Assembly (NCBI GenBank): GCA_016763735.1
Contig: JAESTE010000117.1
Coordinates: forward strand, 1 to 46,363
DNA: 46,363 bases
Source: Nitrospinaceae bacterium
GTDB lineage: Bacteria > Nitrospinota > Nitrospinia > Nitrospinales > VA-1
Reading direction: 5' to 3'
Position 1 is the first letter of the stretch, and every line of letters starts with the position of its first letter. The notes beneath the pieces were generated by a model. That model saw only the letters and a program-made list of their open reading frames with translations. It was not told the origin of the DNA and did not search any database. A program made the position numbers and the translations under genes. Shown piece by piece: positions 11,980 through 43,947 of this stretch.

Positions 11980-12027
11980 GTCGACACCCGAGTCGACGTC
12001 CGAGTTGAAGTCGACTTGAGAGTCGAC
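11980..12027. promoter_or_regulatory. GTCGAC-box cluster 1 (4 copies)
   Basis: Exact GTCGAC at 11980, 11992, 12010 and 12022. The cluster lies 37-84 nt upstream of the minus-strand ATG at 11943. Confidence 0.7.
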
Positions 12028-12089
12028 ACGGATATAATAAAAATGTACCGCCACTGATGATACAAATCCACGCGCCCATACTCTCGAGG

Positions 12090-12470
12090 ATTTCGCCGAG
12101 GTTGGAAAAGTCAAGGTTTGGTCGAAGGTTTCGAAAACTTCAGAACGCGGTCCCTGAGTGATTCCAACAGCAAACGGTTTGGAGTCGACCAGATGAAAAC
12201 GTGACTTTTTCACTTTCTGAAATACTTGAAACTTGGAAGTATTTCTGAAGTATTGGTCAAGTATTTCGTACTTTCCCTCGAGAGACTTGACAAAAACTTG
12301 AGAAATACTTGACAAAAACTTGAGAAATACTTTGTACCGAGATTTTCCTGAAGTCCAATCGAGAGGGGGGGTAGGGTCTTGTTCCCCCCTAACCGATCGG
12401 CATCAAATCGGTGAATAAAAGATGTTCACCATTTGTGACAAAATAAATTAACCGATATGTCAGACTTTGT
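12090..12470. repeat. Left arm of ~1-kb imperfect palindrome
   Basis: The reverse complement aligns with 12632-13005. The core 12322-12400 is ~78/79 identical to 12703-12781, including matching G7/C7 and C6/G6 runs. The outer and inner parts are more diverged. The arm contains GAAATACTT/AAGTATTTC iterons at 12219, 12237, 12259, 12302 and 12324. Confidence 0.85.
12286..12329. repeat. 2 x 22-bp tandem direct repeat (CTTGACAAAAACTTGAGAAATA)
   Basis: Exact adjacent copies at 12286-12307 and 12308-12329, inside the left palindrome arm. Confidence 0.9.
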
Positions 12471-12631
12471 TACGGTAGTAGTAGAGTAGTGCAATGGGTT
12501 AGACATCCTAGACCCCCCCCCATCCTGTACAAAATTTGGGTATTAATCCAGACTAGTCTAGTCCTACTGCGCAAGGTACCATTCAAACATCCACCCGACT
12601 ATCCTGCAAACGTGAACCATACAATAGGTGT

Positions 12632-13005
12632 CACAGTTCCTGACATATCGGTTAATTGATTGTCTTCACGAACGTTGAACTTGTATATTCACCGAAAACC
12701 TACCGGTCGGTTAGGGGGGAACAAGACCCTACCCCCCCTCTCGATTGGACTTCAGGAAAATCTCGGTACAAAGTATTTCTCAAGTATTTCTCAAGTATTT
12801 TCATACTTTTCAACAAGTCCTTCGAGGGAAAACTACAAAATACTTCAGAAATACTTAAGGTTTTCAAGTTTCTGATCAGGTGAAAAAGTATCGATTTCAT
12901 CCGAGGGCTTACAAAACGTTTGCTGTTGGATCGTATCAGGGACGTGTGTTTGGTGGGTTTTGAAATCCTACTGGAAGACCTTGACTTTTCCAACCTCTGC
13001 GAAAT
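12632..13005. repeat. Right arm of ~1-kb imperfect palindrome
   Basis: This is the inverted partner of 12090-12470. It carries iterons at 12771, 12782 and 12848, plus degenerate copies. TTAACCGATATGTCAG (left) is matched by CTGACATATCGGTTAA (right). Confidence 0.85.
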
Positions 13006-13072
13006 TTCCCGCAAGTCTTCCCCAGGTTTCGGCACCCTGGATTGGAACCGGCTGAACCCGAGGGCAGGAGTG

Positions 13073-13122
13073 GTCGACTAAGACGGACAAGAGTCGAAAA
13101 GTCGACATGTCGAAAAGTCGAC
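13073..13122. promoter_or_regulatory. GTCGAC-box cluster 2 (3 copies + 1 near copy)
   Basis: Exact GTCGAC at 13073, 13101 and 13117, with GTCGAA at 13093. The 22-mer GTCGACATGTCGAAAAGTCGAC is identical to 26851-26872. The cluster is upstream of the H3-like gene. Confidence 0.7.
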
Positions 13123-13229
13123 CTCCTTCCCCGGACGACTTGGCTCTCTGCACCCCGACCTGGGGGTCAACAACCTCTGGGGGACACAGTTTGAGGCTTT
13201 CTGAGGTAGTGGTGACTGCGTTCGTTACC

Positions 13230-13868
13230 ATGGCACGTACCAAGCAATCCCGTTCCTCTGCCACCAAAGACAAGGCTGCACTCCCCAAACTCAAGGGCCA
13301 CAAGGCCGGTCCGTCTGGAAAGGTCACGCGTTCGACAATCAAAGGGCCCAAGAAGGGGGCCGGGGGCAAAGGCAAGTCGGGCAAGGTCCAACACTACCGT
13401 CAACCGGGTGATGTGGCGCACGCCAAGGTCAAGGGTTTGGCCCCAGGCGAACCCCAGCCACGTCGCACCAAGGACGGGTTCCTCTTCCGCAAACCGCGCT
13501 CGCACCCGGGCCAGAGGGCCAAGCGGTTCATCAAGAAGCTCCAGATGAGTGTGTTGCCGGTCTCCAGCATGGCCGGGGCACGTCGAGCCTTTGTGGGCGG
13601 GCTGGTGCGCATCAACGCACTGAACATGCGCGTGAGCCGCAGCGCCATGGCCACCGCACAGGAAGCCGTGGAGATGATCTTCCACACCATCGCCACCGAC
13701 GCGTTGTTGACCACTGTGGCCCGAGGACAGAAGACCCTGTCGGTAGGCGACCTGGAGTTGGCCTTCATGCGGTACTCGAGGTCGGGTCAAGGCACCAACA
13801 TGGTGTGGCAAGAGTACCAGTCGCTCAACCCGGACGGCACGTCACTCCAACTGCGTGCGTTGAGTTGA
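13230..13868 (+). CDS. Histone H3-like protein (212 aa)
   Basis: The start was moved to ATG 13230, giving N-terminal MARTKQS (H3 has ARTKQT). VQHYRQPGDVA parallels H3 KPHRYRPGTVA. RVSRSAMATAQEAVEMIFHTIATDALLTTVARGQKTLSVGDLELAFMRY parallels H3 [50 protein letters not shown]. Confidence 0.75.
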   Translation: MARTKQSRSSATKDKAALPKLKGHKAGPSGKVTRSTIKGPKKGAGGKGKSGKVQHYRQPGDVAHAKVKGLAPGEPQPRRTKDGFLFRKPRSHPGQRAKRFIKKLQMSVLPVSSMAGARRAFVGGLVRINALNMRVSRSAMATAQEAVEMIFHTIATDALLTTVARGQKTLSVGDLELAFMRYSRSGQGTNMVWQEYQSLNPDGTSLQLRALS

Positions 13869-14516: not shown

Positions 14517-14586
14517 CCAGTAACTGAATGGATTTGTACATACCCACTCATGTCTCCCCTTCGTGTATAAAGATTGATCAAGCAGC

Positions 14587-15933
14587 ATGTCGCGCGCTAC
14601 CGTACAGAAACGGTTCACTGACTACATCACGCAACAGACCCCGCCCGCACGCACCGATGAAGTCGCCGGGTCCACCGAGGCCAAGAACGGCATGCACTCG
14701 GCCATGCGCGCCCTGAGCTCCAAGCAACGGTACCGCTCCCACTTCGCCGACGCCACCGAGAAGGTGGCCGATGCCTTGTTCGAGAAACACCCCGCCCTCA
14801 AGGCCTGTAGCGACGGCACCTGGGGCAAGTACTGCCAGTACACCCTGTTCTCGTGTCTGGACGAGACGTACCTGCCCCTCCTGGAGGAGGCCGCCAACGA
14901 CATTGACCACAAGGCACACACCGAGGCCGTGGTCATGATCAACTCCATCAAGTTCTTAGAATGCCAGCTGAAGGAGATATGGGAAGCCTTGATCACCACC
15001 TTCACCGACTCTGCGCCCCAGTTCGCCCTGTTGTGCAGCTTTGCCCGCGAGTGCTACGTGATCCGTGCCTCCGACGCACCCATCACCACAGCAGAGACCA
15101 AGCAAGGAGTCAAGGGCATGTTCACCGGGTCCAACAAGAGCAAGGACTTGTTCCGAGTCTACTTCATCCAGGACGAGGCCGAACGTCTGGCCTTTGACCG
15201 GTCGGTACGCAAGGGAAACCTGGGCATCCTGAAGAGCCATCGTCTCAAACACGCCGCGTCACGTCGCGAGTGGAAGAAGCGGGTGGAGGCCGGGACGCAT
15301 CCCGTCAAGTCCAAGAAAGGACGCAAGAGAGAGCGCCAGAAGAACAACGGCAAGGAGGCCAAGGACCAGAAGGTCCCCTCCAAAGACGACGACGAACCGT
15401 CGGTGGGAGACGGGTGTTGGATACTTGAGCGAGGTGTGCAGCCTCTGGCCGAGGCCGTGTACGCAGTCTTCCATCGTGAAGAACGTATCCGAGAGGAGAT
15501 AGTCAACGTACTGGAGCGTATCGTGGTCACCCCCGCAGGACTGGCCGACCAACACGCCGCCATTCAGCGCATGGCAGTGGACTCGGCCAGCTTCCCTACC
15601 CTGGCCATGCGTACGGCCTTGCAAGACTACCGTCAACAACTGTGGGTGGTGCTGATGTTCCTCCACGACAAGGAGATCCACAACGCGTTTCGTGCCTTGG
15701 TGACCAAAGACACCCCCGAGAACGAACGCGAAGCTATCATGAAGGAGGCCATCCGAGCCATCCTGCCCGACTCGGCACGTGACGACGAACCTATCCCGCG
15801 TGAGTGTGCCCCCACCCCGCAACCCCAGCCAGTGCAGGTGACTCCTGTGGTCAACAACGTGCCCAAGGCCGAAGACTGTACCGGTGCTGCCGGAGCGGAG
15901 AAGGACGCACTTGAATCAGACCAAGACGAGTAA
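14587..15933 (+). CDS. Hypothetical protein (448 aa) with central basic NLS-like stretch
   Basis: ATG ORF with protein-like composition. It contains KKRVEAGTHPVKSKKGRKRERQKNNGKEAK. TATAAA at 14566-14571 is only 16 nt upstream, so the true start could be the internal Met at 14692. No P-loop is present, so this is not the missing terminase exon. Confidence 0.65.
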   Translation: MSRATVQKRFTDYITQQTPPARTDEVAGSTEAKNGMHSAMRALSSKQRYRSHFADATEKVADALFEKHPALKACSDGTWGKYCQYTLFSCLDETYLPLLEEAANDIDHKAHTEAVVMINSIKFLECQLKEIWEALITTFTDSAPQFALLCSFARECYVIRASDAPITTAETKQGVKGMFTGSNKSKDLFRVYFIQDEAERLAFDRSVRKGNLGILKSHRLKHAASRREWKKRVEAGTHPVKSKKGRKRERQKNNGKEAKDQKVPSKDDDEPSVGDGCWILERGVQPLAEAVYAVFHREERIREEIVNVLERIVVTPAGLADQHAAIQRMAVDSASFPTLAMRTALQDYRQQLWVVLMFLHDKEIHNAFRALVTKDTPENEREAIMKEAIRAILPDSARDDEPIPRECAPTPQPQPVQVTPVVNNVPKAEDCTGAAGAEKDALESDQDE

Positions 15934-15948
15934 CACATACAGTCTTCA

Positions 15949-18900
15949 TTACATCACGTATCGAGTCATTTGTTTCTGCCGGTCTAAACGGCGTCTGTTG
16001 TTCAGCGCACTACGGTCTCTCTGTGCAAACAGTAGCGCTTGTTGTTCTTTGCACATCGTGGTGAAGGCTGTGATGCAGAGGATGGTGTCTGCGCGGGTCA
16101 TGGGGTGGCACTGCCTGATGTAGTCGGCCTGGGCACGGGTGTGGTGCTTGGTGCACACCAGGACGCCATGTGGGTAGATGAAGCAACGACGTTGAGGCAC
16201 CAACTCACGGGTACAGAAGGTGCATTGATGGGTCACGTGCCCGGTCTTGGTGAGTTCAGGGATCACCCGTCGCTGGGCCGCACGCACCGCACGTCGGGTC
16301 TGGGTGCACACCGTACAGATGTAGCCAAAACTAGTGTAGTCGCAGTGGTCCGGGTGGTAGACCATGGGCAGGCCGCACCCCGGGAAAGGACACAGCATGA
16401 TCACCCGTCCGTTCCATTGCAGGAGCCGGCCCAACAAGAACACTTCGCACAGGGGTTGACTGGAACATCGCATGTGCCCGCGTATCCGGTCCATCTTGCA
16501 GAACCTCTCGCCTGTGACGTAGTCCATGACAATGCCGTTGTACCCAAAGACGTTGTTGGGGTTGCGCTTGGAGATGGACGTCATGATAGACTGGGAGTCT
16601 TCGTGGGCCACCAACCCTCCCATGCCGTCAATCAAGGACGCGCCGGCCGGGTCGTCTACTATGGGAGGCATGGCCAGGTCCACTTCCGGCACCGGTGCGT
16701 CTGCGTTGCGGCGTACCCGGCGTGTCTTGCCCTTGGCACTGGACATGGGTTGACGCAACAACGAGTAGACTTGCTGGCACACCTGGCAGTAGTGGAACCG
16801 GGTACGTCCTTGTGCCAGGAAACGAGGCACACGGGTCAGCCCCAGCTTCAATTGAATGGCCTTGATCTGGTTGGTGATGTAATGGTCAGGCAGCTCGTAG
16901 GTGATGCACTGGCTGTGTTCGGTCCAGAACAAGCAGGTGACTTGCAGCAAGTAGAAGGAGTAGGGGAAGCGGTGACGGAATGCCTCGAGCCGGGTGCGCA
17001 AGGCTCGCTTGCCCATGCGGTACATGTCGTACTCCTGCACCAAGTCTTGCATGGACAACAATGCGGTAGGGGACGCGCCCAGGTCAGTTAGAAGAGGGAA
17101 CACGTCACGATGCAACACCGTGTCCACTTGGTCGTAGTGTCCCAGCCACGCGTACAAGTACTTCATGGACGACACCGTCATGGAAGGGATGTCGTCGGGG
17201 CGGAAGGGGTCGGTGTCGGGCCGAGTGCGCAGATCAAAGCGACCCGACTTGCCACGCTGGCAGGTGTGCAAGAAGGACGTCAAGGGGATACGTTGCCGTT
17301 GGTAGCAGTGCTTGAGGATGGCGTCCCGGGCCCCGATGCAGGCCCCATGGATCTTGTCGCGCAAGTCGTTGTCCCACAACTGAGTGATCTTTTTGGATTT
17401 GTTGCGCACCAGCCACTCTTCAGGGGAGGCTTCGGACAGCAGGGTGCGTACCGTCACCAAGGTCTCTTCCACCACGCGTGCGAACCCGGTCCAGTCACAC
17501 AGCAGACGCACGTGGCTGGCGAACACCGGGTCGTCGTTGATGGCCCACACCAAGGCTCGACGCATGGCAAAGGTCGTCAACCATTGACACTTCATGACCA
17601 CCTCGTCCAGCAACTCGGGTTGTTCAATGCTGATCTTCCGCAGCCTGTCTCGGCACACCAAGGGCAGCTGGAACTCTACTGGTGTACTAGGGTACTGCCC
17701 TGTCAACCCGGCCAGGATGATCTGACGGAGCAGCTCTCTGTTGCGGGGTCTGTTGCGTACGAACCGCTTGCACATGTTGGCGAACATGCGGGTTTGGCAA
17801 GGTTGCGGGGTGACCTTGGAGAGGATGTGTACCAAGGGTGCCACAGTGCCGGGCCGTAGTTGGAACCAGAAGCAACACTGGTGGGCGGCGCTGCGGATGT
17901 CGATGGCAAAGTGTTCAGGGGTACACAGTTGTTTGGCCAGGGCTTGGCCCAGAGGGGAGTGGACACAGTCGTGGCGTGCGCCGTACGCCATGTCGTGCAG
18001 GAGTCCCGCCAGATGGCGCATGCGAGGGGCGCATTTCTCGTCTGCCACCACTTCGTCCAATATTTCAAGACACTTGGCCCAGTGTTGTCGTCCACGTAAC
18101 TCTTGGTCGAGTCCAAACGCGTTGTGAGGGTTGTGTGCGTAGAGTTGGGAACCGTATTCGCGCAGCAAGGCAAGGTGGGGGCAATGGAGCTCACGTATCA
18201 ACCGAAGTCGCGTGGGTTCTTCTGCCGCCACCCGTTCCTCATGGGCCTTGCTGCGCCGATGAAAATCCTGATAACGTTCACCGGTCTGTGGTTGGAGCGT
18301 GGGTTCTTCACGGTACACCATGCTCGACTGGTCAATGACCCAGCGTCCGCCTTGCTCGGGGTCGCGGTACGCCCTCAATTGAGAGTAGAGGTACGAGGCC
18401 ATGCTGTCCACCAGCCCTTCGTACCGACTGGCAGAGGGCTGGAACGTGTAGGCTCCAAAGTACCCGCCCTTGTCGTTGCGCAGGTTGCGGTACAGCTGGC
18501 ACACGAACGTGGTGTTGACTCCGTTGAGGCGGCGGTAGTTGGGGCGCAGACTCAAGATGAAGTGGGTCACGTGCACCCGGCAGCACAAGATACAGGGACG
18601 ACGTTCACGCGGAGCTACTCCGGCTTCCATGAAGATCTGGTACTCTTCGGGGAACATGAGGGAAGTCAACACCACGCCACCACTGTGTTCGGGGAACCCC
18701 ATCAGTTGGTGTGTGCGCCCGGCACAGTTTTCTCCACGCGAACAGGCCGGGAAGGTGTAGGTACGGGGCGGGCCCTTCTGCATCTGGACGACATGGGTGC
18801 CGGCTTCGGCCAGGAGCTGCGACTCGAAGTCTGCGGTGAGGATGGGCAGCATGACCCGGCGTTGGTTGATGAGATACTTGACCTCGTCGCTGGTCAGGTT

Positions 18901-26893: not shown

Positions 26894-27190
26894 CTACATG
26901 TCTTTGTCTTGGGTCCCGGCCGACGCTTCTGCCACGGCACGCTGCAACGACTGTTCGATCCCCGTGGCAAAGGCGTAGTCCAGCACCCTCTTCTTAAGTT
27001 TCCATCGTTCGACCAGTTCTTCAGGGGAGAGGGCGTCGTCGGGTGCGGTGGAGGCGTTGGCCATCATGTCACGTATCACGGCCAGGTGGTGGTGGAAGGT
27101 GGGCTTGTCCATGCCCGAAGGAGTGGCCAACTTGTCCCAGTGTGTGCAGTCCTTCTGGGCACAGTGCGCGTCGGACTTAGTGTCTGCCAT
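26894..27190 (-). CDS. Small protein (98 aa), GMD-x2-TF paralogue B
   Basis: The internal ATG at 27190 (MADTKSDAHC...) was chosen because the upstream 47 codons are R/P-rich and antisense-like. HWDKLATPSGMDKPTFHHHLAVI matches KWLELEVPAGMDQETFFYRLRVL of the neighbouring gene. Confidence 0.5.
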   Translation of the reverse strand: MADTKSDAHCAQKDCTHWDKLATPSGMDKPTFHHHLAVIRDMMANASTAPDDALSPEELVERWKLKKRVLDYAFATGIEQSLQRAVAEASAGTQDKDM

Positions 27191-27481: not shown

Positions 27482-28204
27482 TTATGAAAAATACTTCGAC
27501 AACTTTTGCTCTGTGTCGGGGTCAGGGGGGTTGTCCGCAAATTCCGCAAAGAACGCAGCCAGCTCTTCCGCATTGGTTGGGAGAGAGTGAAACCCGTACG
27601 TCTGGGTCTGGCACATACCCAGATTGCAGTCTCCACAGAAGTCCCCCATTTCCAGGAACGCGGCCGCCTCCAACTTGGCGTCGGCTCTGTCTCTGGCCGC
27701 TGGACTGAGATCCAGATCTGGCCACGCGTAGTGGGTGTTATCTTTTGGTCCCTCGAGTGTGAGCGGTTGAACCGGGACAGGACCCGGCCACTTCCAGACG
27801 ATGTGTGCGTCGGCCCAGCGACAGTACACGAGGTGCAGGGTGCGGTGTCGGTCGATCAGACACGCACGTGTCACCCACTCGTGCATTTCCAGCTCCATCT
27901 GGGCAGTTTCGAGGCACTTCTGATTCCTGGCACGGTCGGTGAGTTGATAGTGGTGGTGCATGGTGACGACAGAGCCAGCTGACCATTCGAAGTCCTTCAT
28001 GAAGGAGCTCAGGACGGAGTTTGGCATGCAATCGTGGTAGTTCCCTTGAATCACGATGCGGAGGCAGGTGTCGTTCCGGATCATGTACTCGCACTTCCGC
28101 TCTGGAGTGGACATGTCTGCGCGTACACACCGTACCGTGGTACCTGGATGAGTAGATCGACCACGACCTTTGACTTGATGGTGGGTTGAATTGTGGACAC
28201 ACAT
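27482..28204 (-). CDS. Hypothetical protein (~240 aa; start ambiguous)
   Basis: The ORF is open to 28357, but the region upstream of 28204 overlaps GTCGAC cluster 5 and the divergent gene. Candidate ATGs are at 28204 and 28114. No motif recognised. Confidence 0.55.
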   Translation of the reverse strand: MCVHNSTHHQVKGRGRSTHPGTTVRCVRADMSTPERKCEYMIRNDTCLRIVIQGNYHDCMPNSVLSSFMKDFEWSAGSVVTMHHHYQLTDRARNQKCLETAQMELEMHEWVTRACLIDRHRTLHLVYCRWADAHIVWKWPGPVPVQPLTLEGPKDNTHYAWPDLDLSPAARDRADAKLEAAAFLEMGDFCGDCNLGMCQTQTYGFHSLPTNAEELAAFFAEFADNPPDPDTEQKLSKYFS

Positions 28205-28211
28205 GACGCAT

Positions 28212-28248
28212 GTCGACTCGAGTCGACAGTCGTGAAACATGGCGTCGA
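28212..28248. promoter_or_regulatory. GTCGAC-box cluster 5 (3 copies)
   Basis: Exact GTCGAC at 28212, 28222 and 28243. 28212-28227 is a perfect 16-bp palindrome, GTCGACTCGAGTCGAC. The cluster lies between divergent starts at 28204 (-) and 28239 (+). Confidence 0.65.
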
Positions 28249-28847
28249 CTTCTTCCTCGTCGGGGGACGTCCAGCCCAGCAACCAGGTGCGGTGCGTGTT
28301 CAGCGTGGAGCTGCCTGCCGGGAACGAAGCCTTGGCCGACTTGCAGAAACACGCCATGTGGCGATACTTCTGCTTGGAAGACCGGCCCGAGGTGCTGGAC
28401 TACTACGTGGGGATTGCCATCAAGTGCATCCGGAAGGAGTACCCGTCTGTGGTGGGCGAGTTTGTGGCCGTCCTCCGCGGCAACGCAGGCGACACGAACG
28501 TGAACCGTAAATTGTATACATTAATGTCAGCCGTGACCTCGACCAATGGGTTCTACAACTACGTGCGTACCTACAGCAGCAACGACTGGGCCCAGACCAG
28601 CGTGGCGTTGAAACTGCTGGAGACATCCTTCAGGCAGTGGTTTGAAGGGCTGGATGTCAACCACCGGGTGGCCCAGACCCCACGCGACGTACACTTCAAA
28701 CACCTGGACGAGTTCGTGCACGACCATCGGGTGAGGGTGATCACGGGGCAGCTGACCGGGCACGTTTGGCAACCTCCGAACAAGAAGGCTGTGGCTGCGG
28801 CCGTGGTCGAGGCGCCTGCTTCCGCTTCCGACTCTGCGTCCCTGTGA
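28239..28847 (+). CDS. Hypothetical protein (202 aa)
   Basis: ATG ORF with protein-like composition. Its 3' end overlaps the convergent gene 28741..31320 by 107 nt. Confidence 0.6.
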   Translation: MASTSSSSGDVQPSNQVRCVFSVELPAGNEALADLQKHAMWRYFCLEDRPEVLDYYVGIAIKCIRKEYPSVVGEFVAVLRGNAGDTNVNRKLYTLMSAVTSTNGFYNYVRTYSSNDWAQTSVALKLLETSFRQWFEGLDVNHRVAQTPRDVHFKHLDEFVHDHRVRVITGQLTGHVWQPPNKKAVAAAVVEAPASASDSASL

Positions 28848-31537: not shown

Positions 31538-33040
31538 ATGGACCAGGCTCGACCACTCAAACGGACCAAAGTGCACACGGAACTGTTCACGTCTGAGTAC
31601 GACGGAGGGGTCATCCAACTGGCCCGGGCCGAGGACGAATGCAGGTCAGGCACGTGTCCTCGGTCCTCGGTCGTGGCCGACTCGGGTACGTACGTGTGCA
31701 CCACGTGTGGACTGGTGAACGGCGTGGAGTACGACTCGTCTGGTGAACGGTTTGCGAAGGAGGGCACCACCAGGGTGTCTACCCACAGTGACCGGGCCAG
31801 GTTGGTGGACCTGTTGGGGTTGTACACTCCTGCACCAGTGGACATGTCGGGTACTCCTGTGCACCAGGCCGGGCGTGACAACGGGGTGGAGCGGTTGTTG
31901 TGCCACTACAATCTGGGGGTGAGGACCATTGAAGCCCAGTGTCGTATGCACCACTTGGCGCCCTTGGTGTGCAAGAAGTCGTTGGAGTTGTGGAAGAAGA
32001 CGTGTGTGCTGCGACGTGACCGTGGATCCTCCCGTGCTCAGGCCTTGACCGAGCTGAAGGCGCGGCACCTGGAGGAGACGGGTGTGTGCGACAACGCGTT
32101 GCACTACGCCAAGGTCCAGGCCCAGGGAGACAAGACGTCTGCCGTGTACCTGGCTGCACTGGACCAGAACACGTCGAGGAAGAAGCGGCACACCTACGAG
32201 ATGAAGCAGACCAAGGGCATGTACGGCGGGTGCCATCGTGAGGTGGAGGACCGTGAAGCCCCCGCAGTGTTGCTCTATGTGTTGCAGACCGAGAGCATGG
32301 CGCATGGTGCGGTTGACTTGGCGGAAACGTGTGACAGTACGGTGATGGAGCTGGAGGGGGCGGTGACTAGGCTGGTGCACAACCTGGACTTGCCGCACGT
32401 GAACCGGTATTGTCAAGTGTTGTGCCATGCCCGACGTCTGGCCCGTTCGTTCAGGGTGGACGACGCCTTCAGTTGGGGACTGGAGGAGTTGGTGCAAGGG
32501 CATGCACGGGCCGTGGGGCAAGGCATCCCTGACCGTCTGAGCAACACCGAGGTGGCCGGGGTGGCTGTGTTCTGGCTCATGTGTCGAGACAGACGGGACT
32601 ACGTGCGTTCGAACGCGGCCCGGCACAGCCCTTCGCCTTCGTGTAGACGGGGCAAGAACGGCCGGATGCCCTTGATTGACTTGAGACAGGGCCAGCACCA
32701 GAAGCCAGTGGTGTCCCGTAAGGTGGTGCGTCCACGGGCCACGTGTGACGTGCTCCAGGGGTTGACACTGGACCAGGTGATTGCGCGTTGCCACACCAAC
32801 ATGGCTCCCGTGACGGTGCAGACGTATACACGGTACCTGCGCGACGAGATGCCCTTGGCAGACCGTCTGGCGTTGTTGGAGTGCGCGCCCCGTCCACTGG
32901 TGCACATGGACCCCTTGACACGTCTCGACCGCAAGGCTCGTGCCCGGGTGACCCAAGAGGTGTTGCCTGTGCCCTGTGCCCCTGCCATCGCACTCGACCC
33001 GTGGCCCACTGACTTTGGCCTGGACTCGGCGGCCATTTGA
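31538..33040 (+). CDS. TFIIB-like transcription factor (500 aa)
   Basis: The start was moved to ATG 31538, because the track's N-terminus is encoded by GTCGAC boxes. The zinc ribbon is C-RSGT-C-x13-C-TT-CGLVNG (31640-31711); human TFIIB has ...DMICPECGLVVG. A long helical region follows and could hold cyclin-like repeats, but this is unverified. Confidence 0.65.
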   Translation: MDQARPLKRTKVHTELFTSEYDGGVIQLARAEDECRSGTCPRSSVVADSGTYVCTTCGLVNGVEYDSSGERFAKEGTTRVSTHSDRARLVDLLGLYTPAPVDMSGTPVHQAGRDNGVERLLCHYNLGVRTIEAQCRMHHLAPLVCKKSLELWKKTCVLRRDRGSSRAQALTELKARHLEETGVCDNALHYAKVQAQGDKTSAVYLAALDQNTSRKKRHTYEMKQTKGMYGGCHREVEDREAPAVLLYVLQTESMAHGAVDLAETCDSTVMELEGAVTRLVHNLDLPHVNRYCQVLCHARRLARSFRVDDAFSWGLEELVQGHARAVGQGIPDRLSNTEVAGVAVFWLMCRDRRDYVRSNAARHSPSPSCRRGKNGRMPLIDLRQGQHQKPVVSRKVVRPRATCDVLQGLTLDQVIARCHTNMAPVTVQTYTRYLRDEMPLADRLALLECAPRPLVHMDPLTRLDRKARARVTQEVLPVPCAPAIALDPWPTDFGLDSAAI

Positions 33041-33105: not shown

Positions 33106-33762
33106 ATGGAAAGCGAGGACACACGCGTGTTCAATGGCCTGGCCCTGACCTTGTCGGGTCTGGGGCTGATCGGGCTGATCTTGGGGGAGATGATGCAGAG
33201 CCTGGGACTGGCGTGGAGCCCCAACCGTTTCTTCGAGATGAAGCACCAACGTGAAGGCAAGCCCGAGTACATCGCTCGGTCGGCGTGCGAGCAAGGGTTG
33301 TACTACACCCTGACGTTCGGGGCCATCAAGGGCGGGATCGTGGCGGCCATGGTCATGAACCACGAGTTTGAACACCACATGGCGTTCCTCTGGACCTTCC
33401 TCAACATGACATTGATCACTGGTGGACCCGTGGTGATCGCCTTTGCGTGCAGCGACCGCAGCGTCAAGGGTCACTACGTCCTGTCGTACCAAGAGCAGCA
33501 GTGGCTGAGGTGCCGGGCCTTGCCGGGAATCTTCATGCATTTGGTGGGCATGATGAGCCTGGGGATCGAGCTGGCCGTCGCGCACAACTGGCAATGGACC
33601 TGCATACTGTCGTCGTTGTTGGCGGCGATTGGGTTTTATTACTTCGTGCTGTACCGTCTCCGCGTGGACACAGACGGCACCGAGATGTTTGTACACGCCG
33701 TCTTGATCATCTCCTGGACCGTCCTGATTGTGGCCATCACCACGCTGCCCTACAAAGCGTGA
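33106..33762 (+). CDS. Multi-pass membrane protein (218 aa)
   Basis: The track start at 33082 is GTG; the first ATG is at 33106 (MESEDTRVF...). Five to six hydrophobic segments are visible (LALTLSGLGLIGLILG, GGIVAAMVM, LITGGPVVIAFA, IFMHLVGMMSLGIELAV, ILSSLLAAIGFYYFVL, AVLIISWTVLIVAI). Confidence 0.65.
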   Translation: MESEDTRVFNGLALTLSGLGLIGLILGEMMQSLGLAWSPNRFFEMKHQREGKPEYIARSACEQGLYYTLTFGAIKGGIVAAMVMNHEFEHHMAFLWTFLNMTLITGGPVVIAFACSDRSVKGHYVLSYQEQQWLRCRALPGIFMHLVGMMSLGIELAVAHNWQWTCILSSLLAAIGFYYFVLYRLRVDTDGTEMFVHAVLIISWTVLIVAITTLPYKA

Positions 33763-33765
33763 CGG

Positions 33766-34170
33766 TCAAGCGTTGCCCACCTCCCCCCACACTTGTCCGT
33801 CCCAGCAGATCTCCCCAGCTTCCAGATTCATGTTGGCAAGTTCATTGTCGCCGTACCCCTCCCCCGTGAACTCGAATACTTTCCCCTGCCCCACCAGCTG
33901 TCCGTCCGCCCAGTTTCCAAATACAATCTCATTCTTGGAATTGGAGTGTGGCGTGTCCCGACGGTAGACGCCAATGCCGTGAAACTTGCCGTGGGAGAAC
34001 CCTCCCTCGTACTTCATACGGTGTTGTTCAGTGTACAGGATGCCATGCCCATGGTACTTGCCATGTTGTACGTCCCCACGGTACACGATATCCACTGTGT
34101 CCACGAGGGCCACGACCACCTTGGTCTTGGGCACACGACACAGAGTCAACTTGCGGTCCTCGTCTTGCAT
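33766..34170 (-). CDS. MORN-repeat protein (134 aa)
   Basis: There are three MORN-like units: YRGDVQHGKYHGHGILY, YEGGFSHGKFHGIGVY and VFGNWADGQLVGQGKVF. Confidence 0.7.
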   Translation of the reverse strand: MQDEDRKLTLCRVPKTKVVVALVDTVDIVYRGDVQHGKYHGHGILYTEQHRMKYEGGFSHGKFHGIGVYRRDTPHSNSKNEIVFGNWADGQLVGQGKVFEFTGEGYGDNELANMNLEAGEICWDGQVWGEVGNA

Positions 34171-34314
34171 AATGAGGTGGTTGCCTGACCAAAGTCAGAC
34201 GACCCTCAGCACAGAGGGAAGATCCTCACCACGTCAAGGTCGTTACGGAGTCGTGAATAGTGCACACAAATGAGTAAAGTACCCCCGTTTCACATCAAGT
34301 ATACCACCCGCACC

Positions 34315-35359
34315 ATGCTCGTTCCGGTCCTCGCCTCTCTCGTGGTCGTCATGTCGGCGACCTCGTTGATCTTGGTGTCGTTCGTCATGAACGGGGATCT
34401 GGTGTTTTCCAACCCGCCCCTGTCCATTCACAACCCCACCAGTACATACAAGGCCACAGTAGACAACGACGACTCTGGGTTCGACATCAAGAAAGGCGAC
34501 ACGCTCCTGGCACGGTTCGACCACACGTCAGGGCTGGTACTTCGTGAGCTGGAAAACCTCACCACCAAGACCGGACAGATACGGTTCCATGAGCTGGACC
34601 GGAACGGCGAGCACTTCGTCTCCATCCGCGCACCTGACGCGTTGGCAGCCGATATCACCTACATCCTCCCCGCAGCAGACGGGTCGACGGGGCATGTGAT
34701 CAAGACGGACGGGGTAGGGCTCTTGAGCTTCACCAACATCACGTCAACCATCATCGACTCGGGTGCGGCAGGGAACCGGTTCAGCGACAACTACTTTGAC
34801 GCCGGGACCGCCGGGGCGGTGGCAGTGAAGAGCACAGGCACCCTTGTCATGACCTCGACCGGGAACACGACCATCAACGCTAACGCCGTCATCCTCAAGG
34901 GTCTGACCTACCCCCCTGGCCGACGGGACAGACGGGCAAGTCATCGGCACCAACGGAGGAGGGATACTGAGCTTTATCACCCCCTCTGGCGCTTCCACCT
35001 ACACACTTGCCGCCACTGTGTTGATCGGGTTCGATCCGGCGCAAACTATGACGTGTGAACTCGCCATCATCAACGGAATGGTAACCATGGACTGTGCGGC
35101 CACAACATTGGGGACCATCGTCGGTGGCGGCGTTGCGTACCTCGCCTCGACGGACACGCTTCCAGTCGCCTTCAGGCCTGTTGCATCGGAGGTGTGGATA
35201 CCGTGGTTTACTAAGTTCAACAACAACCCTACAACAGGGTACTTCACGATCCAGACGGACGGCACTATCCGGATCTTCGCTGCACTCAGCCTTTCGTGGA
35301 CAGGGGGGACGACAAACTGTGGGATTCATCATGGCGGGGCGACGTGGAAGGCGCCGTAA
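34315..35359 (+). pseudogene. Fibre/spike family member A1, interrupted by a +1 frameshift in a C6 run
   Basis: Frame 1 (34315..34914) encodes the TM anchor and first repeat up to GLTYP. Skipping one C at 34915 restores LADGTDGQVIGTNGGGILSF and the conserved C-terminal domain (VTMDC...GGATWKAP) in frame 2, running to the stop at 35359. The C6 run is at 34911-34916. The cause could be sequencing error, pseudogenisation or programmed slippage. Confidence 0.7.
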
Positions 35360-38089: not shown

Positions 38090-39454
38090 TCAGATGGTCC
38101 ACGACGCAGACCCACGGTACAGCGTACAGTTGGTCGCCCCTCCGGCCCACCCAGACGTGTCGTCTCTCCAGAACTTCAGGGTGCCTCCGGGGTGGACTTC
38201 CACAAACCCACGGCCCTGTTCGCCTGTGTACGCGTGCATCCACGAGAGGTGGGGCACAGATCTGGCGTCGGGACGGAACCCCTCAGGCAACTTGTCCATC
38301 GTATCCAGAGACGGCTGCGGCAGCGGGTCCACGTCGAACGTGACTTGCTGGCAATCCATGAACACCGTGCTGCGGATCTTGAGCAGCTCACACATGAGAA
38401 CCGCAGGGGACATACCCACCGTCCCCGAGATGGTGGTCACGAAGAGTGCTTCGGTGAAGGTCTTGGACCAGCTCAGTTTGTGTTTCCCGTTGGTTGTCAA
38501 CACCTCGTTCTTGGTGCCGTCTCTGGACGGGTATTCCAGTCCTTGAATCTTGACGTGGCCGAACGGAGCCTCGATCGTCACGTGAGACGCCGACCCCAGG
38601 ATGTGGACATCTGCGCCGTCCAGCCGTAGGGTAGATCGCGGTGCACTGGCCCACACCATGCCTTCGCTGCTGGTGAGGGTCAAGGACATGTTGGACTTGA
38701 TGAACACCGTGCTCATGGCGGAGATTGTTGAGATGGATTGCTGTGCGCGGACCACAATGTTGCGGGCGGCCGTGGCCTCGATGTCTCCCGTGGCGAGAGT
38801 GGACACACGGGTGTCGTCGGTGCCGTCGCTGAGCGAGGTGCAATCGCACGTGGGCGCAGGACCAGGGGCCGGAGCGTTGGTGGGCAACCCCGTTTGGGTG
38901 GGGACGGTGGTGGGGACAGTGGTCGCGGGGGCAGTGGTGGGTGCTTCCGTGGCCACCGGCGTGAACAACAACAGCGGGTCTGCCCAGTACGTGTTGCCTG
39001 TCCCGTCGTTGACCAGGACGTAGCCGGGGTGTGCCGCGTTGGAGGGCAGGGTGAGCACCACATCGTCGACGTGAGTGGTCGGGGCGCGAAGGGTGAGGAA
39101 CGCACTGCCGTTCTCCGCCTGGGCAGACTGGAACTGCAACTGCCCGGTGCGGGGACCGAGAGCCAGGATCTGGACCCCAGAGGGACCGCCAAACTGCACC
39201 ACGTCATGGGCGTTGGCACGAATCGTGATTTGGGGGGCGGTGTGAGGCGGTCCAGCGGCGTACAATCCAGTGTGAGGGGGATCGGTGACGTCGCAACCAA
39301 TACTCAGCAGGGTTTCCCATATAAGCGTAGAGTTCTTTGGGAACATGGCAGGCGTGCCAATCTGTCCGATGGACGGGGGGACCCGAGACACGACCACGAA
39401 TCCAGCGCCGGTGAGGACACCGATGAAAAGCATAAGCGGGATGAGAGCAACCAT
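38090..39454 (-). CDS. Fibre/spike family member B1 (454 aa)
   Basis: The N-terminal TM anchor is MVALIPLMLFIGVLTGAGFVVV. One degenerate and one canonical motif are present (GLEYPSRDGTKNEVLTTNGKHKLSW). There is a P/T-rich linker followed by C-x-C (PAPTCDCT). The family C-terminal domain is VFMDC...FRP...GFVEV...LKFWR...GSASW. Confidence 0.8.
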   Translation of the reverse strand: MVALIPLMLFIGVLTGAGFVVVSRVPPSIGQIGTPAMFPKNSTLIWETLLSIGCDVTDPPHTGLYAAGPPHTAPQITIRANAHDVVQFGGPSGVQILALGPRTGQLQFQSAQAENGSAFLTLRAPTTHVDDVVLTLPSNAAHPGYVLVNDGTGNTYWADPLLLFTPVATEAPTTAPATTVPTTVPTQTGLPTNAPAPGPAPTCDCTSLSDGTDDTRVSTLATGDIEATAARNIVVRAQQSISTISAMSTVFIKSNMSLTLTSSEGMVWASAPRSTLRLDGADVHILGSASHVTIEAPFGHVKIQGLEYPSRDGTKNEVLTTNGKHKLSWSKTFTEALFVTTISGTVGMSPAVLMCELLKIRSTVFMDCQQVTFDVDPLPQPSLDTMDKLPEGFRPDARSVPHLSWMHAYTGEQGRGFVEVHPGGTLKFWRDDTSGWAGGATNCTLYRGSASWTI

Positions 39455-39574
39455 GATGACAGGTTGGAAGTTGAGTTACTGGAACGAGTGTGTTTGATTC
39501 TTGACGGTGATGTACGATTAGGCGGACTTGGTGGTCAGGCGAATGGATTTGTGTGGTGTTGGCACACCAGACAG

Positions 39575-39632
39575 AGTCGACATGCAGTAAAATGTCGACA
39601 TTTGACCGAGTCGACACATGGAAAAGTGTCGA
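39575..39632. promoter_or_regulatory. GTCGAC-box cluster 7 (4 copies)
   Basis: Exact GTCGAC at 39575, 39593, 39609 and 39627. The cluster lies between divergent starts at 39454 (-) and 39780 (+). AATGGATTTGT at 39541-39551 flanks it. Confidence 0.7.
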
Positions 39633-39779
39633 CTTTGCGTTATGACAGTCATACGCACACGGTCGCGTGCTGTGTGTCCTCCTCTACAATGACATTGCGC
39701 TTCGTCATAAGAGTTGTAAACATGAGTAAATTCGCCTATCCGCCCTGTCGTGTACTGCTACCGACAGACAACCTCCAAG

Positions 39780-41099
39780 ATGACGTTTGTCATCGCAGCC
39801 AGCGGCCTAGTGGCCGTGTGCTCCTTCACCTCGCTCATACTGGTCGCGTTCGTTATGAACGGAGACCTGGCCATCACCGACCCACCAGACCACATCCGCA
39901 ACCCTGCCAGCACGTACCGTGTGACAGTCGAGGACGACGGCGGAAAGGTCGAGATCAAGAAAGGATCCGATGTCTTGTTTCGACTGGACACCGCAGAAGG
40001 CATGCAGCTTCTGCCTCTTCAGAACCTCACCAAGAAGACAGGACAATTGTCGTTCCACGAACTGGCCCGCAACGGTGCCCACTACGTGTCCCTGCGTTCG
40101 CCAGATGCTCTGGCCGCCAACGTCAGCTACATCCTCCCCATAGCCGACGGCATTGCCAACGCTGTTCTCAAGACCGACGCGGCCGGGCAGATGGCCTGGA
40201 CCGCCACGGCGTTCGATTCCACCAGGATCCAAGACACGGCCGGTACCACGTTCATTGACACCGACGTCGCCTCGGGGAACATCACGGTGACGGCCCTGTC
40301 GGGTTTCACGCAGACGATCACCGGGTCGGCGTCCTTCACCAGTACCCACGAGACCCATATCACTGGCGATACCGGACTTGTTCTACAAGACCTTACGTTC
40401 CCGTCGGCCGACGGCACGTCTGGCCAAGCCATCACCACAGACGGAGCCGGGCTTCTGAGCTTCAGCACCGTATCCTCCAACAGCAAGATCATCGACTCGG
40501 CTGCCGCAGGCACCACTGCAAGTGGTGCATACTTCGACACCACCACTGCGAGTGCCGTTGCCGCCGCCAGCACAGGCACGATCACCATGACTTCCACGGG
40601 TACCTTCAACGTTGTAGCCAGCGCCGTTGTCCTGGATGGTCTCACCTACCCCACTTCTGACGGAACCAGTGGACAATCAATCACCACTGACGGGGCGGGG
40701 ACGCTGTCCTTTACCACTGTGGGTGGCGGTAGTGATGTGACGGCGGTGTACACAAGTATTCTCACCGGGGCAACCACCGGGAACATCACCTGTAACTTTG
40801 GCAAAAGCAACACATTCGTCACGATGGACTGCTCAGAGACCTTCCTCACCATGACCGGCCCCGGAGGCCCCACGTCCCTCGTCGCTGCAGTCGCGATCCC
40901 AGCGGCATACGTCCCGACAGGCAGCGACTTCACTGGGCCCTGGATGATGCAAGTTACCAGTACCATTGAGGTGGGATACATTACTGTGTCATCGTCAGGC
41001 ACCCTCACGTTCTGGCGTGCCGCTGCCGCTACGTGGACTGGCGATGCACTGACCTCGGGACCACACCACGGTTCGGCGACATGGCAGTTCGGTGCATAA
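39780..41099 (+). CDS. Fibre/spike family member A3 (439 aa, 3 repeat modules)
   Basis: The track start at 39750 is GTG; the first ATG is at 39780 (MTFVIAASGLVAVCSFTSLILVAFVM). The N-terminal 140 aa are closely similar to A1 and A2. The motifs are DLTFPSADGTSGQAITTDGAGLLSF and GLTYPTSDGTSGQSITTDGAGTLSF. The C-terminal domain is VTMDC...GSATW. Confidence 0.8.
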   Translation: MTFVIAASGLVAVCSFTSLILVAFVMNGDLAITDPPDHIRNPASTYRVTVEDDGGKVEIKKGSDVLFRLDTAEGMQLLPLQNLTKKTGQLSFHELARNGAHYVSLRSPDALAANVSYILPIADGIANAVLKTDAAGQMAWTATAFDSTRIQDTAGTTFIDTDVASGNITVTALSGFTQTITGSASFTSTHETHITGDTGLVLQDLTFPSADGTSGQAITTDGAGLLSFSTVSSNSKIIDSAAAGTTASGAYFDTTTASAVAAASTGTITMTSTGTFNVVASAVVLDGLTYPTSDGTSGQSITTDGAGTLSFTTVGGGSDVTAVYTSILTGATTGNITCNFGKSNTFVTMDCSETFLTMTGPGGPTSLVAAVAIPAAYVPTGSDFTGPWMMQVTSTIEVGYITVSSSGTLTFWRAAAATWTGDALTSGPHHGSATWQFGA

Positions 41100-42122: not shown

Positions 42123-42154
42123 AATACAATCCTCTGACACACACACTAACGCGT

Positions 42155-43375
42155 TCACAGTCCCTCGGGCCCGGTGATCCAGGTGGCCGTGCCGCGAGAC
42201 AGGCCACACCCGGTGACCCCGGCGGCCCATGGCGCCTCCCCGTCGCGCCAGAACTGCACACTGCCCTCAGGGCTGATCTCTATGAAGCCTAGGGCCGTCA
42301 CGCCTGCGTACTGCAACACCCATGTGCTGCGGATCGGGAACCCGGCAGTGGGACGGAACCCGTCAAAGATAGGGATGAACATGTTGAGCGACGACTGGTC
42401 TATCGGCCCCATGTCAAAGGTGTGGCGCACACAGTCCATGGTGACCTGGGAATGAACCCGGACCAAGGTGCACACCATGGCCAGCGCTGACATGTTGGTG
42501 GTGCCACTCAAGTCACTGGACATGGTAACCGTGGAGTACCAGCGCCGCCACTCCAGCTGGGAGTGCCCGTTAGTGGTGAGGTGTTCGCCCTGTTCTCCGT
42601 CCACAGAAGGGTACGCCAGTCCCTGGATCTTGACGAACCCACTGGTGGTGGCGTTGATGGTGACGTTGGCCGCGGTGGCCTTAATGTGCACATTGGTCCC
42701 GTCCACACTGGTGTTGCCCTCCACTCCATGTATCGTGACGGAGTGCCCAGCCATGAAAGTGATGTCCTGCTCGGCGGTACCTTGGAGCGACTGGAACACA
42801 TTGACGGCTGAGATCCCCGCCGTCAGTGCCCCGTCGCCAATGGCCGTGCACTCGCACTGGGCCGGCGCAGCTGTGGCCACAGGACCGTTGGTGGGCAGGG
42901 GCGTGGAGGTGGGAAGAGGGGTGCCAGGTACAGGAACCGACGGATCGGAGGGGCACCGGACACACTGGTCCTGTGGGTCGACCCAGTACGTGGTGCCCGT
43001 TCCGTCGTTGGCCAACAGAGAGCCTGGGATCACTGCCGGGTGGGCCGGCAACGAGAGGATGAGGTCGTGGTCCATTTCGCGAGGGGCGCGCAACACGTAC
43101 GACCCGGTGCCGTTTACCGAAGGAACCGACTGGAGTCGAATCTGTCCGGCGAAAGGACCTCGCGCCAGGAACTCTGCCCCGACGGAGTCAGCCAGACGAA
43201 GGACCTTGTGATGGTCCACATGGAAGGTTATCCCTGCCCCTGCGTCGTGTTCGACGTAGATCCCCGTGTTGAGCAACACGTTCCACAGCGATGTGGCGTT
43301 GGTGCCAGACAGGGCGGTGTAGCCCACCCCGGCGGTGATGCACGCGACAACGGCTAAAGGTACCATGGCGATCAT
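42155..43375 (-). CDS. Fibre/spike family member B2 (~406 aa)
   Basis: The track start at 43405 is TTG. ATGs are at 43375 (MIAMVPLAVVACITAG) and 43366. The architecture matches B1: TM anchor, P/T-rich linker with C-x-C (PAQCECT), GLAYPSVDGEQGEHLTTNGHSQLEW, and C-terminal VTMDC...FRP...GFIEI...VQFWR...GTATW. Confidence 0.8.
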   Translation of the reverse strand: MIAMVPLAVVACITAGVGYTALSGTNATSLWNVLLNTGIYVEHDAGAGITFHVDHHKVLRLADSVGAEFLARGPFAGQIRLQSVPSVNGTGSYVLRAPREMDHDLILSLPAHPAVIPGSLLANDGTGTTYWVDPQDQCVRCPSDPSVPVPGTPLPTSTPLPTNGPVATAAPAQCECTAIGDGALTAGISAVNVFQSLQGTAEQDITFMAGHSVTIHGVEGNTSVDGTNVHIKATAANVTINATTSGFVKIQGLAYPSVDGEQGEHLTTNGHSQLEWRRWYSTVTMSSDLSGTTNMSALAMVCTLVRVHSQVTMDCVRHTFDMGPIDQSSLNMFIPIFDGFRPTAGFPIRSTWVLQYAGVTALGFIEISPEGSVQFWRDGEAPWAAGVTGCGLSRGTATWITGPEGL

Positions 43376-43443
43376 GACGACTGGTAGATGTGAGGAGTGG
43401 TGCAATGGATTTGTGACTGCAGAGATCCATTGTCACTGCCCGA

Positions 43444-43515
43444 GTCGACATCTCCAAGTCGACACTCACATGTCAACTCCGGCAGAGTCAGCATGTGTCG
43501 ATTTTCAGAGTCGAC
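43444..43515. promoter_or_regulatory. GTCGAC-box cluster 8 (3 exact + 3 near copies)
   Basis: Exact GTCGAC at 43444, 43458 and 43510. Near copies are GTCAAC at 43472 and 43524 and GTCGAT at 43497. The cluster lies between divergent starts at 43375 (-) and 43544 (+). AATGGATTTGT sits at 43404-43414. Confidence 0.7.
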
Positions 43516-43543
43516 ATCGGCAAGTCAACTCGCTTGTCCAATC

Positions 43544-43867
43544 ATGTCTGACCCGGCCCTGTCTGACTCGGACGCGTCCCCCAGACCATCGAAGCGCCGT
43601 CGCGCCTCGTCCAAGGCCTCGAAGCCCCGTGCCCCGTCCAAGAACGTGAAGCGCAAGAAATCGGCAGCCTCCTCCTCCTCTTCCAAGCGCGCCTCGAAGA
43701 ACGAACAGATCAAGGCAGTGGCCCTCACGTGGAAGCAACTACACCCTGAGTTTGTCCTCCCCAAGCTGACGGGCGACCATGCCTCGTTCGTGCCGGACCT
43801 CCAGGCCTTTGTGTTGGACTTGGAGCGTCATCTCAAGTACTTCAAGACTATTCTGCGCAGCAAGTAG
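43544..43867 (+). CDS. Small basic Ser/Lys/Arg-rich protein (107 aa)
   Basis: The start was moved to ATG 43544 (MSDPALSDSDASPRPSKRRRASSKASKPRAPSKNVKRKK...), because the upstream track codons run through the GTCGAC cluster. Confidence 0.5.
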   Translation: MSDPALSDSDASPRPSKRRRASSKASKPRAPSKNVKRKKSAASSSSSKRASKNEQIKAVALTWKQLHPEFVLPKLTGDHASFVPDLQAFVLDLERHLKYFKTILRSK

Positions 43868-43915
43868 TACCCGCGACGAGGTGTATGTACATAAATTGCC
43901 ACTTGATACTCACAT

Positions 43916-43947
43916 GTCGACTTTGGTCGAGTCAACATCAAGTCGAC
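43916..43947. promoter_or_regulatory. GTCGAC-box cluster 9 (2 exact + 2 near copies)
   Basis: Exact GTCGAC at 43916 and 43942. Near copies are GTCGAG at 43926 and GTCAAC at 43931. The cluster is 37-68 nt upstream of ATG 43984. Confidence 0.6.

Follow-up and report, generated by a model that had tools for sequence, protein, structure and literature searches.

The contig JAESTE010000117.1, deposited in the Nitrospinaceae bacterium assembly GCA_016763735.1, is 46,363 nt long and was analysed over its whole length (hereafter the window). Its G+C content is 60%, with ~0.75 G+C at the third codon positions of real genes, and on the arrangement of its terminase gene, described below, we treat it as a mirusvirus-like genome. 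Our subject is the GTCGAC box, a short motif that recurs in nine tight clusters (C1 to C9) at the 5′ ends of a subset of the genes. The box-flanking set comprises the genes for a histone, two of three cysteine-rich (Cys-rich) paralogues, three fibre paralogues, ORFans of 1000 and 859 aa, a zinc-ribbon protein, the 3′ half of the terminase and several small ORFans. These box-bearing genes form a functional mixture and amount to ~14 of 33 (roughly 40%), in line with the claim of a first-pass annotation of this DNA that the motif is limited to a gene subset.

Gene starts in the window were refined with a codon-usage log-odds score trained on long open reading frames (ORFs). In several ORFs the N-terminal part is a non-coding extension passing through a cluster (ATGTCGAC is read as MST), and these extensions score ~0, bearing out the earlier suspicion that MST-type extensions are artefacts. 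The real start of the histone gene lies at 13230 (MARTKQS), the same start as in an independent gene call on a sister contig, while the codon model places the start of the zinc-ribbon gene at 31538 and those of two further genes at 43544 and 43984. The plus-strand gene 28239–28847 is real and overlaps the spurious extension of 27482–28357(−).

Recounting the window gave 47 exact copies of GTCGAC, 33 of them in the nine clusters, whose spans sum to ~560 bp; all three figures agree with the earlier manual scan (47, 33 and under 0.6 kb). The scan had also located all nine clusters, with two ends off by one (the real limits are 28212–28249 and 39576–39633). Its estimate of about 12 singletons was low, as 14 copies lie outside clusters: 12 in coding DNA, one at 12184 within an element resembling a miniature inverted-repeat transposable element (MITE) and one at 20011 in intergenic DNA. 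Start-to-start spacing is mainly 10–28 bp, so the proposed 10–26 bp holds for most neighbours, but wider gaps separate 24305 from 24380 (75 bp) and 43458 from 43510 (52 bp).

The clusters differ in make-up. In C1 (11979–12028) four boxes repeat at a 12-bp period; the cluster lies between the divergent Cys-rich gene 10570–11943(−) and histone gene, and is followed by a TATA-like TATAATAAAAA at 12033. C2 (13073–13123) lies 107–151 nt upstream of the H3-like histone ATG at 13230 and combines three exact boxes with degenerate GTCGAA units, including an 8-bp tandem array at 13092–13123. C3 (24291–24408) separates the 1000-aa gene (ATG 24266, minus strand) from the terminase 3′ half, and its four boxes comprise two on the minus strand followed by two on the plus strand. 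In the tandem region between 26894–27190(−) and 26181–26768(−), C4 (26850–26888) has three AGTCGACA boxes alternating with degenerate units at an 8/16-bp period. The three boxes of C5 (28211–28249) lie in the divergent region between 27482–28114(−) and 28239–28847(+); this cluster contains a composite palindrome, GTCGACTCGAGTCGAC, at 28212, and its third box (28244) overlaps codons 2–4 of the plus-strand gene. C6 (31420–31526), the largest with seven boxes, has its left boxes on the minus strand and its right ones on the plus strand, between the divergent 859-aa gene (ATG 31320, minus strand) and zinc-ribbon gene (ATG 31538). Four boxes forming two inverted-repeat pairs make up C7 (39575–39634), between the divergent fibre paralogues 38090–39454(−) and 39780–41099(+). 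C8 (43443–43516) consists of three plus-strand AGTCGACA boxes with degenerate GTCAAC and GTCGAT copies, between the divergent fibre gene 42155–43375(−) and 43544–43867(+), which encodes a basic protein of 107 aa. Lastly, C9 (43915–43947) has two boxes and degenerate copies in a tandem arrangement upstream of a Cys-rich paralogue (ATG 43984), with a TATA-like CATAAAT 20 nt upstream.

The enrichment of the GTCGAC box is real and far beyond chance. Dinucleotide-preserving shuffles of the window contained on average 23.3 hexamers and never more than 32, against the 47 observed; for the asymmetric 8-mer AGTCGACA the shuffled average was 2.3 and the highest count 7, against 23 copies. These 23 copies (16 on the plus strand and 7 on the minus strand, exactly as first noted) all lie outside genes. 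Intergenic DNA (4,178 nt) holds 34 boxes, or 8.1 per kb, and coding DNA (42,185 nt) 13, or 0.31 per kb, a 26-fold difference (binomial p = 1e-25); within the window, the density check proposed with the annotation came out in its favour. Once the MITE-like element is left aside, 33 intergenic boxes remain where base composition predicts 0.8. In an unbiased scan of all hexamers for dispersed homotypic clustering GTCGAC ranked first, with 10 loci and 34 of 47 copies clustered, whereas the runners-up reached 5–6 loci of two copies each (AGTCGA and TCGACA were set aside, as both overlap the box). The tenth GTCGAC locus is an intragenic pair at 7840/7865 that lacks the extended flanks and is probably due to chance.

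Alignment of the 33 clustered boxes revealed a consensus of about 11 bp, A-R-A-GTCGAC-A-Y (ARAGTCGACAY), in which a palindromic core is set between asymmetric flanks. An A precedes the core in 31 of 33 boxes and follows it in 24 of 33; in terms of half-sites, 23 boxes pair AGTC with TGTC, three AGTC with AGTC and one TGTC with TGTC. Degenerate copies (GTCGAA, GTTGAA, GTCAAC) are interspersed among the exact ones. Tandem Repeats Finder detected short arrays of unequal period, namely 12 bp in C1, 8 bp in C2, 13 bp in C3 and C6 and 8/16 bp in C4. The 22-mer noted earlier (GTCGACATGTCGAAAAGTCGAC) is present in identical form at 13101 and 26851. The spacers of the arrays are unrelated, and the box is the sole unit common to all loci.

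Tandem arrays of 8–16 bp period inside several clusters raise the question of whether the boxes are non-functional or selfish micro-repeats, that is, slippage-prone palindromic units that expand wherever coding constraint is absent. Recent neutral expansion would also account for their absence from related viruses, reported below. We nevertheless consider this explanation improbable, for three reasons. First, the same 8–11 bp box occurs at nine loci with differing spacers and periods, and since only the box is shared, selection on the box is indicated rather than the spread of one repeat unit. Second, unconstrained DNA is not generally invaded: the convergent spacers and a 291-bp tandem spacer are free of boxes, and this spacer together with the 916-bp MITE-like insert contains a single copy, a non-consensus one in the insert. 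Third, the flanks are constrained, as seen from the A residues at −1 and +1.

The clusters are restricted to 5′ regions of genes. They occur in six of 10 divergent regions, two of 15 tandem regions and none of nine convergent regions (Fisher p = 0.011, divergent versus convergent), with box densities of 15.5, 5.2 and 0 per kb, respectively. The element therefore keeps to the 5′ ends of genes and does not behave as a 3′-end signal. The lack of boxes in all nine convergent regions and the location of seven of nine clusters between divergent starts also set it apart from the ‘hairpin rule’ of giant viruses, in which palindromes follow stop codons at the 3′ ends of transcripts. Short upstream regions of 36–120 bp that lack boxes are found at the 9 genes of the window’s first 12 kb and, for example, at the genes starting at 13905, 14587, 25670, 33106, 34270, 35430, 41618, 41739 and 45034. 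The earlier statement that clusters sit 10–150 nt upstream of start codons was right as to gene 5′ ends, but the distance to the ATG spans 11–200 nt overall, with 2–7 copies per cluster, the box at 28244 is inside a gene and, on its terminase side, the cluster at 24292–24407 lies upstream of a splice acceptor and not of a start codon. Because copy number, spacing and ATG distance all vary, a core promoter element at a fixed position does not fit.

This placement also bears on a possible role as a polar roadblock, insulator or terminator, in which a Myb/Reb1-type protein bound in one orientation would halt polymerases that read through, or run antisense, at transcription-unit boundaries. The model is the Sal box of ribosomal DNA (rDNA), which is read by a monomeric Myb domain of TTF1 in an orientation-dependent manner (PMC11358750). 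Mouse and human Sal boxes (AGGTCGACCAG...) have the same GTCGAC core as the element described here, along with asymmetric flanks and an arrangement in repeated arrays, and in the tandem clusters C4 and C9 the boxes begin 7 and 49 nt past the upstream stop codon, both in the GTCGACT orientation facing the incoming polymerase. However, Sal-box flanks (GGTCGACCAG) differ from the RA...AY flanks found here. The Sal box is moreover mainly a downstream terminator, whereas convergent regions, where termination would be most needed, are without boxes, tandem junctions have them in two of 15 cases only, and the majority of clusters are flanked by divergent starts, so that polymerases should not run into them. 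We therefore regard a roadblock function as unlikely.

The sequence between the clusters and the genes contains further promoter-like signals. A second motif, GAATGGATTTGTG (CACAAATCCATTC on the sense strand of the gene), is found at 39541, with one mismatch at 43403 and with two mismatches at 11947. On the minus strand, in gene-proximal position relative to the nearest cluster, lie an initiator-like CACAAAGTCATTC (11947–11959, 20 nt from C1), a shorter form CACAACATTC (24272–24281, 10 nt from C3), CACAAATCCATTC itself (39541–39553, 22 nt from C7) and CACAAATCCATTG (43403–43415, 28 nt from C8). The pattern CACAA(N0-3)YCATTS thus occurs at four promoters, all of minus-strand genes, in the sense of the gene and 10–28 nt gene-proximal of the nearest box; it was defined post hoc, and four of its seven matches are intergenic. 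A fifth copy of the second motif at 14526–14538 has the opposite orientation and lies upstream of the box-less gene starting at 14587. The CCATTC/TCATTC core resembles a possible RNA polymerase II (Pol II) initiator, a lead rather than a result. Should transcription start there, the proximal box would fall at roughly −20 to −40. Two box-less genes have a canonical TATAAA ~45 nt before the ATG, which suggests Pol II-type promoters.

At two promoters the boxes follow a TATA-like element and would then lie in the transcribed leader. This would suit a structural mode of action, in which the self-complementary boxes pair either in the RNA, as 5′-leader hairpins that influence translation or stability, or as DNA cruciforms. 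All nine clusters fold box-on-box, six of them with z-scores of −2 to −5.4 against shuffles, and some pairs reach arms of 9–10 bp (AGUCGACAC/GUGUCGACU). Such pairing potential is automatic whenever a palindrome is repeated, though, and C4, C5 and C9 fold no better than their shuffles (z −1.0 to −2.0). A cluster between divergent genes cannot belong to the leaders of both, the asymmetric flanks (23 of 33 boxes AGTC/TGTC) would be superfluous for pairing, and no Rfam family matched any cluster. Stable 5′ hairpins, moreover, usually inhibit translation in eukaryotes. Taken together, these points leave structural action a slim prospect.

The terminase region bears on the identity of the window and gives a particular context to C3. 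In the ORF 24303–25589 the first ~53 codons are non-coding and are followed by LRGVTADIIVLEE, which contains Walker B. Directly before LRGVTADIIVLEE lies a putative 3′ splice acceptor on the plus strand (24440–24462), a polypyrimidine tract ending in CAG that is 55 nt downstream of the last C3 box; the two nearest C3 boxes are 55 and 77 nt upstream of it. Homologues of this terminase 3′ half are 32–56% identical to it, one of them carrying Pfam DNA_pack_C (the DNA_pack_C matches are weak), and the family profile matches the phage large terminase (TerL) with E = 2e-6. The split at LRGVT/Walker B recurs in the family, as 10 of 11 aligned homologues begin at or after the same point, while the distant relative P0011 is unsplit and has Walker A. 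The closest relative, L004 (9940–11095), shows the same split, an acceptor-like sequence and the same neighbouring genes. Neither a terminase ATPase half nor Walker A was found anywhere in the 46-kb window, and the 448-aa ORF (14587–15933), considered as terminase exon 1 by analogy with the herpesvirus UL15 layout, was ruled out as it has no Walker A.

In most mirusviruses the terminase is trans-spliced, with a C-terminal part that carries Walker B and the nuclease (PMC12768974), and the core functions of the group include histones, RING-type proteins and transcription factors, with reproduction in the nucleus predicted (PMC12768974). The terminase 3′ half of the window, split before Walker B behind an acceptor as in that report, is our ground for treating the window as mirusvirus-like. 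A trans-spliced 3′ half needs a promoter of its own, and the C3 boxes lie where such a promoter would be expected. A medusavirus identity, suspected from the G+C-rich window and the histone, was ruled out because the published medusavirus motif differs and the terminase is mirusvirus-like. One candidate for an HK97-fold capsid, portal or triplex gene is the partial ORF that begins at 45034 and runs off the end of the window; it had no sequence match in the PDB.

Upstream of the terminase 3′ half, the 448-aa gene (plus strand) and three minus-strand genes of 1329, 388 and 1000 aa (14587–24266) have apparent counterparts at L004 606–9649, to judge by gene order, orientation and sizes, which are the same. 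The block recalls the UL15-exon/UL16/UL17 layout of herpesviruses.

The box system is specific to its lineage. Five relatives (L003, L004, L005, L170 and L171, ~93 kb), with terminase identities of 32–56%, have neither GTCGAC clusters nor another dispersed clustered hexamer, and the syntenic region upstream of their terminase is likewise without GTCGAC clusters. At L004 11804–12008, four copies of GACGTCC and a tandem CCATCCTACG array share an intergenic region of 480 bp; they form a single local repeat that is not dispersed. No relative with more than 56% terminase identity was found among 5.8 billion proteins. Contigs from sister samples are short and 99.4–100% identical to the window, with differences almost entirely inside the MITE-like element, and so hold no footprinting signal. 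A scan of Joint Genome Institute (JGI) metagenome contigs for the exact 22-mer GTCGACATGTCGAAAAGTCGAC gave no match. A generic box-cluster pattern had at least 120 matches in IMG/VR; locus inspection covered the 42 loci of a more specific pattern, each of which consists of one or two local tandem arrays in an unrelated phage or virus contig, as opposed to dispersed clusters. IMG/VR look-ups with the 1329-aa and 1000-aa proteins returned no relatives. Rfam and transfer RNA scans of the window gave no matches, and the convergent spacers contained no consistent poly(A) signals. The literature searched holds no description of mirusvirus promoters or of a GTCGAC-type viral promoter, in agreement with the first-pass annotation, which knew of no viral promoter of such form.

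We propose that the boxes are homotypic clusters of transcription factor sites that function as upstream activating elements or as promoter-proximal ones, in many cases for two divergent genes together, and consider this the probable explanation. A sequence-specific DNA-binding protein, viral or host, would bind the boxes, and the bound clusters would recruit the transcription machinery, probably of Pol II type in view of the nuclear reproduction predicted for the virus. Clusters in divergent regions would probably serve both flanking genes, and one cluster (C3) may direct separate transcription of the 3′ half of the trans-spliced terminase. We infer protein binding, transcriptional activation and any kinetic class from the motif and its placement. 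As to the nature of the binder, the dimeric factor suggested at the outset is doubtful: with 23 of 33 boxes of the AGTC/TGTC type, a simple homodimer on a palindrome is hard to sustain, and the palindromic core of the Sal box, read by a monomer, indicates that a dimeric binder is not required here.

Several observations weigh against this proposal. The nearest box may be as close as 11 nt or as far as 146 nt from the ATG, and neither the number of copies nor their spacing is regular. The boxes had been described as oriented, yet no single orientation rule fits all nine clusters, neither ‘AGTCGACA towards the gene’ nor its reverse: AGTCGACA points outward to the nearest gene in C2, C3, C5, C6 and C8 (five divergent regions), whereas C1, C4 and C9 have it facing away from the gene downstream, and C7 is mixed. 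The TATA-like elements upstream of the boxes in two promoters would mean that the boxes there coincide with the transcription start or follow it. No candidate for the DNA-binding protein was identified. The lack of clusters in the five relatives, from which we conclude that the system is lineage-specific, also means that there is no phylogenetic footprint, and identical-protein look-ups and a search with the Cys-rich family yielded only contigs that fall inside the window, so that the pattern is not replicated beyond it.

The immediate-early TAATGARAT elements of herpes simplex virus (Oct-1/HCF/VP16) are activator-recruiting upstream elements. Like TAATGARAT, the boxes described here are short, asymmetric and multi-copy, occur in either orientation and at variable distance upstream of a gene subset, and belong to what would be, by analogy, a nuclear, Pol II-dependent virus of the herpesvirus/mirusvirus lineage. 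The two sequences are unrelated, however, and the box-bearing genes include apparent structural genes (fibres, terminase) and are not an obvious immediate-early set. Homotypic site clusters in divergent intergenic regions are also familiar from the upstream activating sequence (UAS) of yeast GAL1-GAL10, where several sites with a dyad core act on both genes; there the system is cellular and a Zn2Cys6 homodimer binds a symmetric site, whereas the site here is asymmetric.

Among giant viruses, the immediate-early motif of medusavirus, GCCATRTGAVKTCATRTGGYSRSG, is 24 bp long and lies 40–70 bp from the ATG (PMC8557863). It resembles the box in containing a palindrome, in being intergenic, in its occurrence in divergent and not convergent regions and upstream of a gene subset, and in belonging to a G+C-rich, histone-encoding, nucleus-dependent giant virus (PMC8557863). 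The box differs in its length (8–11 bp), copy number (2–7), ATG distance (11–200 nt) and viral phylum, and multi-copy clusters are not reported for medusavirus in that paper. The early promoters of Nucleocytoviricota (mimivirus AAAATTGA, marseillevirus AAATATTT) are likewise virus-specific short motifs over-represented upstream of a gene subset, but they are AT-rich, usually single-copy and at a fixed distance, and are regarded as core promoters of a viral RNA polymerase, whereas the boxes are G+C-rich, multi-copy and variable in position.

The homologous regions (hr) of baculoviruses provide a further comparison, as well as another explanation to be weighed. They consist of ~30-bp imperfect palindromes that bind IE-1, enhance nearby promoters and also act as origins. 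The box clusters are hr-like, by analogy, in being dispersed, repeated intergenic arrays centred on a restriction-site palindrome, and might be replication-origin or genome-maintenance elements, similar to miniature hr or to the oriP repeats of Epstein–Barr virus and possibly doubling as enhancers. That a more distant relative in the clade, L170, encodes a herpes-type origin-binding protein (Pfam Herpes_ori_bp) would suit such a role. But nine clusters in 32 kb are far denser than known origin sets, hr arrays being fewer and larger, and the units are 8–11 bp with unrelated spacers in place of ~30-bp palindromes. The strict bias to gene 5′ ends is not expected of origins, and no AT-rich unwinding element was found beside the clusters. 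We consider an origin function very unlikely.

The window holds a number of other features. Between C1 and C2, upstream of the histone gene, lies an element of ~916 bp (12090–13005) that looks like a MITE from its sequence: it is low in G+C (42%), has imperfect terminal inverted repeats of ~330 bp (74–87% complementary) and contains internal arrays of the 11-bp AAGTATTTCTC. The sister contig L168 is 99.9% identical to the window up to 12439 and diverges only inside this element, suggesting several diverged genomic copies. The Cys-rich paralogues (10570–11943(−), 25670–26143(+) and 43984–44928(+)) have an N-terminal ...TTW...HIE.DL..AGYTNVP domain in common; none has a Pfam match, which leaves the earlier label ‘RING-like’ without Pfam support, or a homologue outside the contig among the 5.8 billion proteins. 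The label ‘TFIIB-like’ for the product of 31538–33040(+) is equally weak, since its zinc ribbon matches Pfam Zn_Ribbon_TF below the cut-off (E = 0.077) and cyclin-fold repeats were not detected by sequence. In the fibre paralogue 34270–35359 there is an apparent +1 frameshift near 34915, after which frame 1 continues the ...LTYP-DGT-GQ-I-T-G-G-LSF... repeat and joins the ORF 35048–35359; a pseudogene, an assembly error or programmed frameshifting could each account for it. A MORN-repeat protein (Pfam E = 9e-8) is encoded at 33766–34170(−), and precomputed Pfam matches on the sister contigs identify a 1736-aa protein with EGF-like repeats at 1085–6295(−) and a DUF2061 membrane protein at 6352–6708(+). 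Multi-pass membrane proteins with no Pfam match are encoded at 6705–7370 and 33106–33762.

Mirusviruses are a recently recognised, abundant phylum that links herpesviruses and giant viruses, and we know of none that has been grown in a way that reveals how its genes are switched on. The finding reported here is limited to one contig of one uncultured virus. Within that scope the boxes would be the first candidate regulatory code in this virus group, familiar in kind as a virus-specific upstream motif and new in lineage and in form, with multi-copy, asymmetric and G+C-rich boxes. The motif offers a handle for predicting transcription units and supports independent transcription of the terminase 3′ half. 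It can further be used as bait in the search for its regulator by DNA affinity purification sequencing (DAP-seq), electrophoretic mobility shift assay (EMSA) or protein–DNA co-folding, for instance with the oligonucleotide AGAGTCGACAT. Its absence from relatives whose terminases are only 45–56% identical suggests that regulatory codes evolve fast in the group. More tentatively, the boxes and a lineage-specific factor may together constitute a private regulatory circuit that defines one mirusvirus expression class, including a separate promoter for the terminase 3′ half; the factor could be a viral ORFan protein, for example of the Cys-rich family. If this were true, the boxes would represent the first cis-regulatory grammar for Mirusviricota, and would imply a very fast turnover of promoter codes between related viruses.

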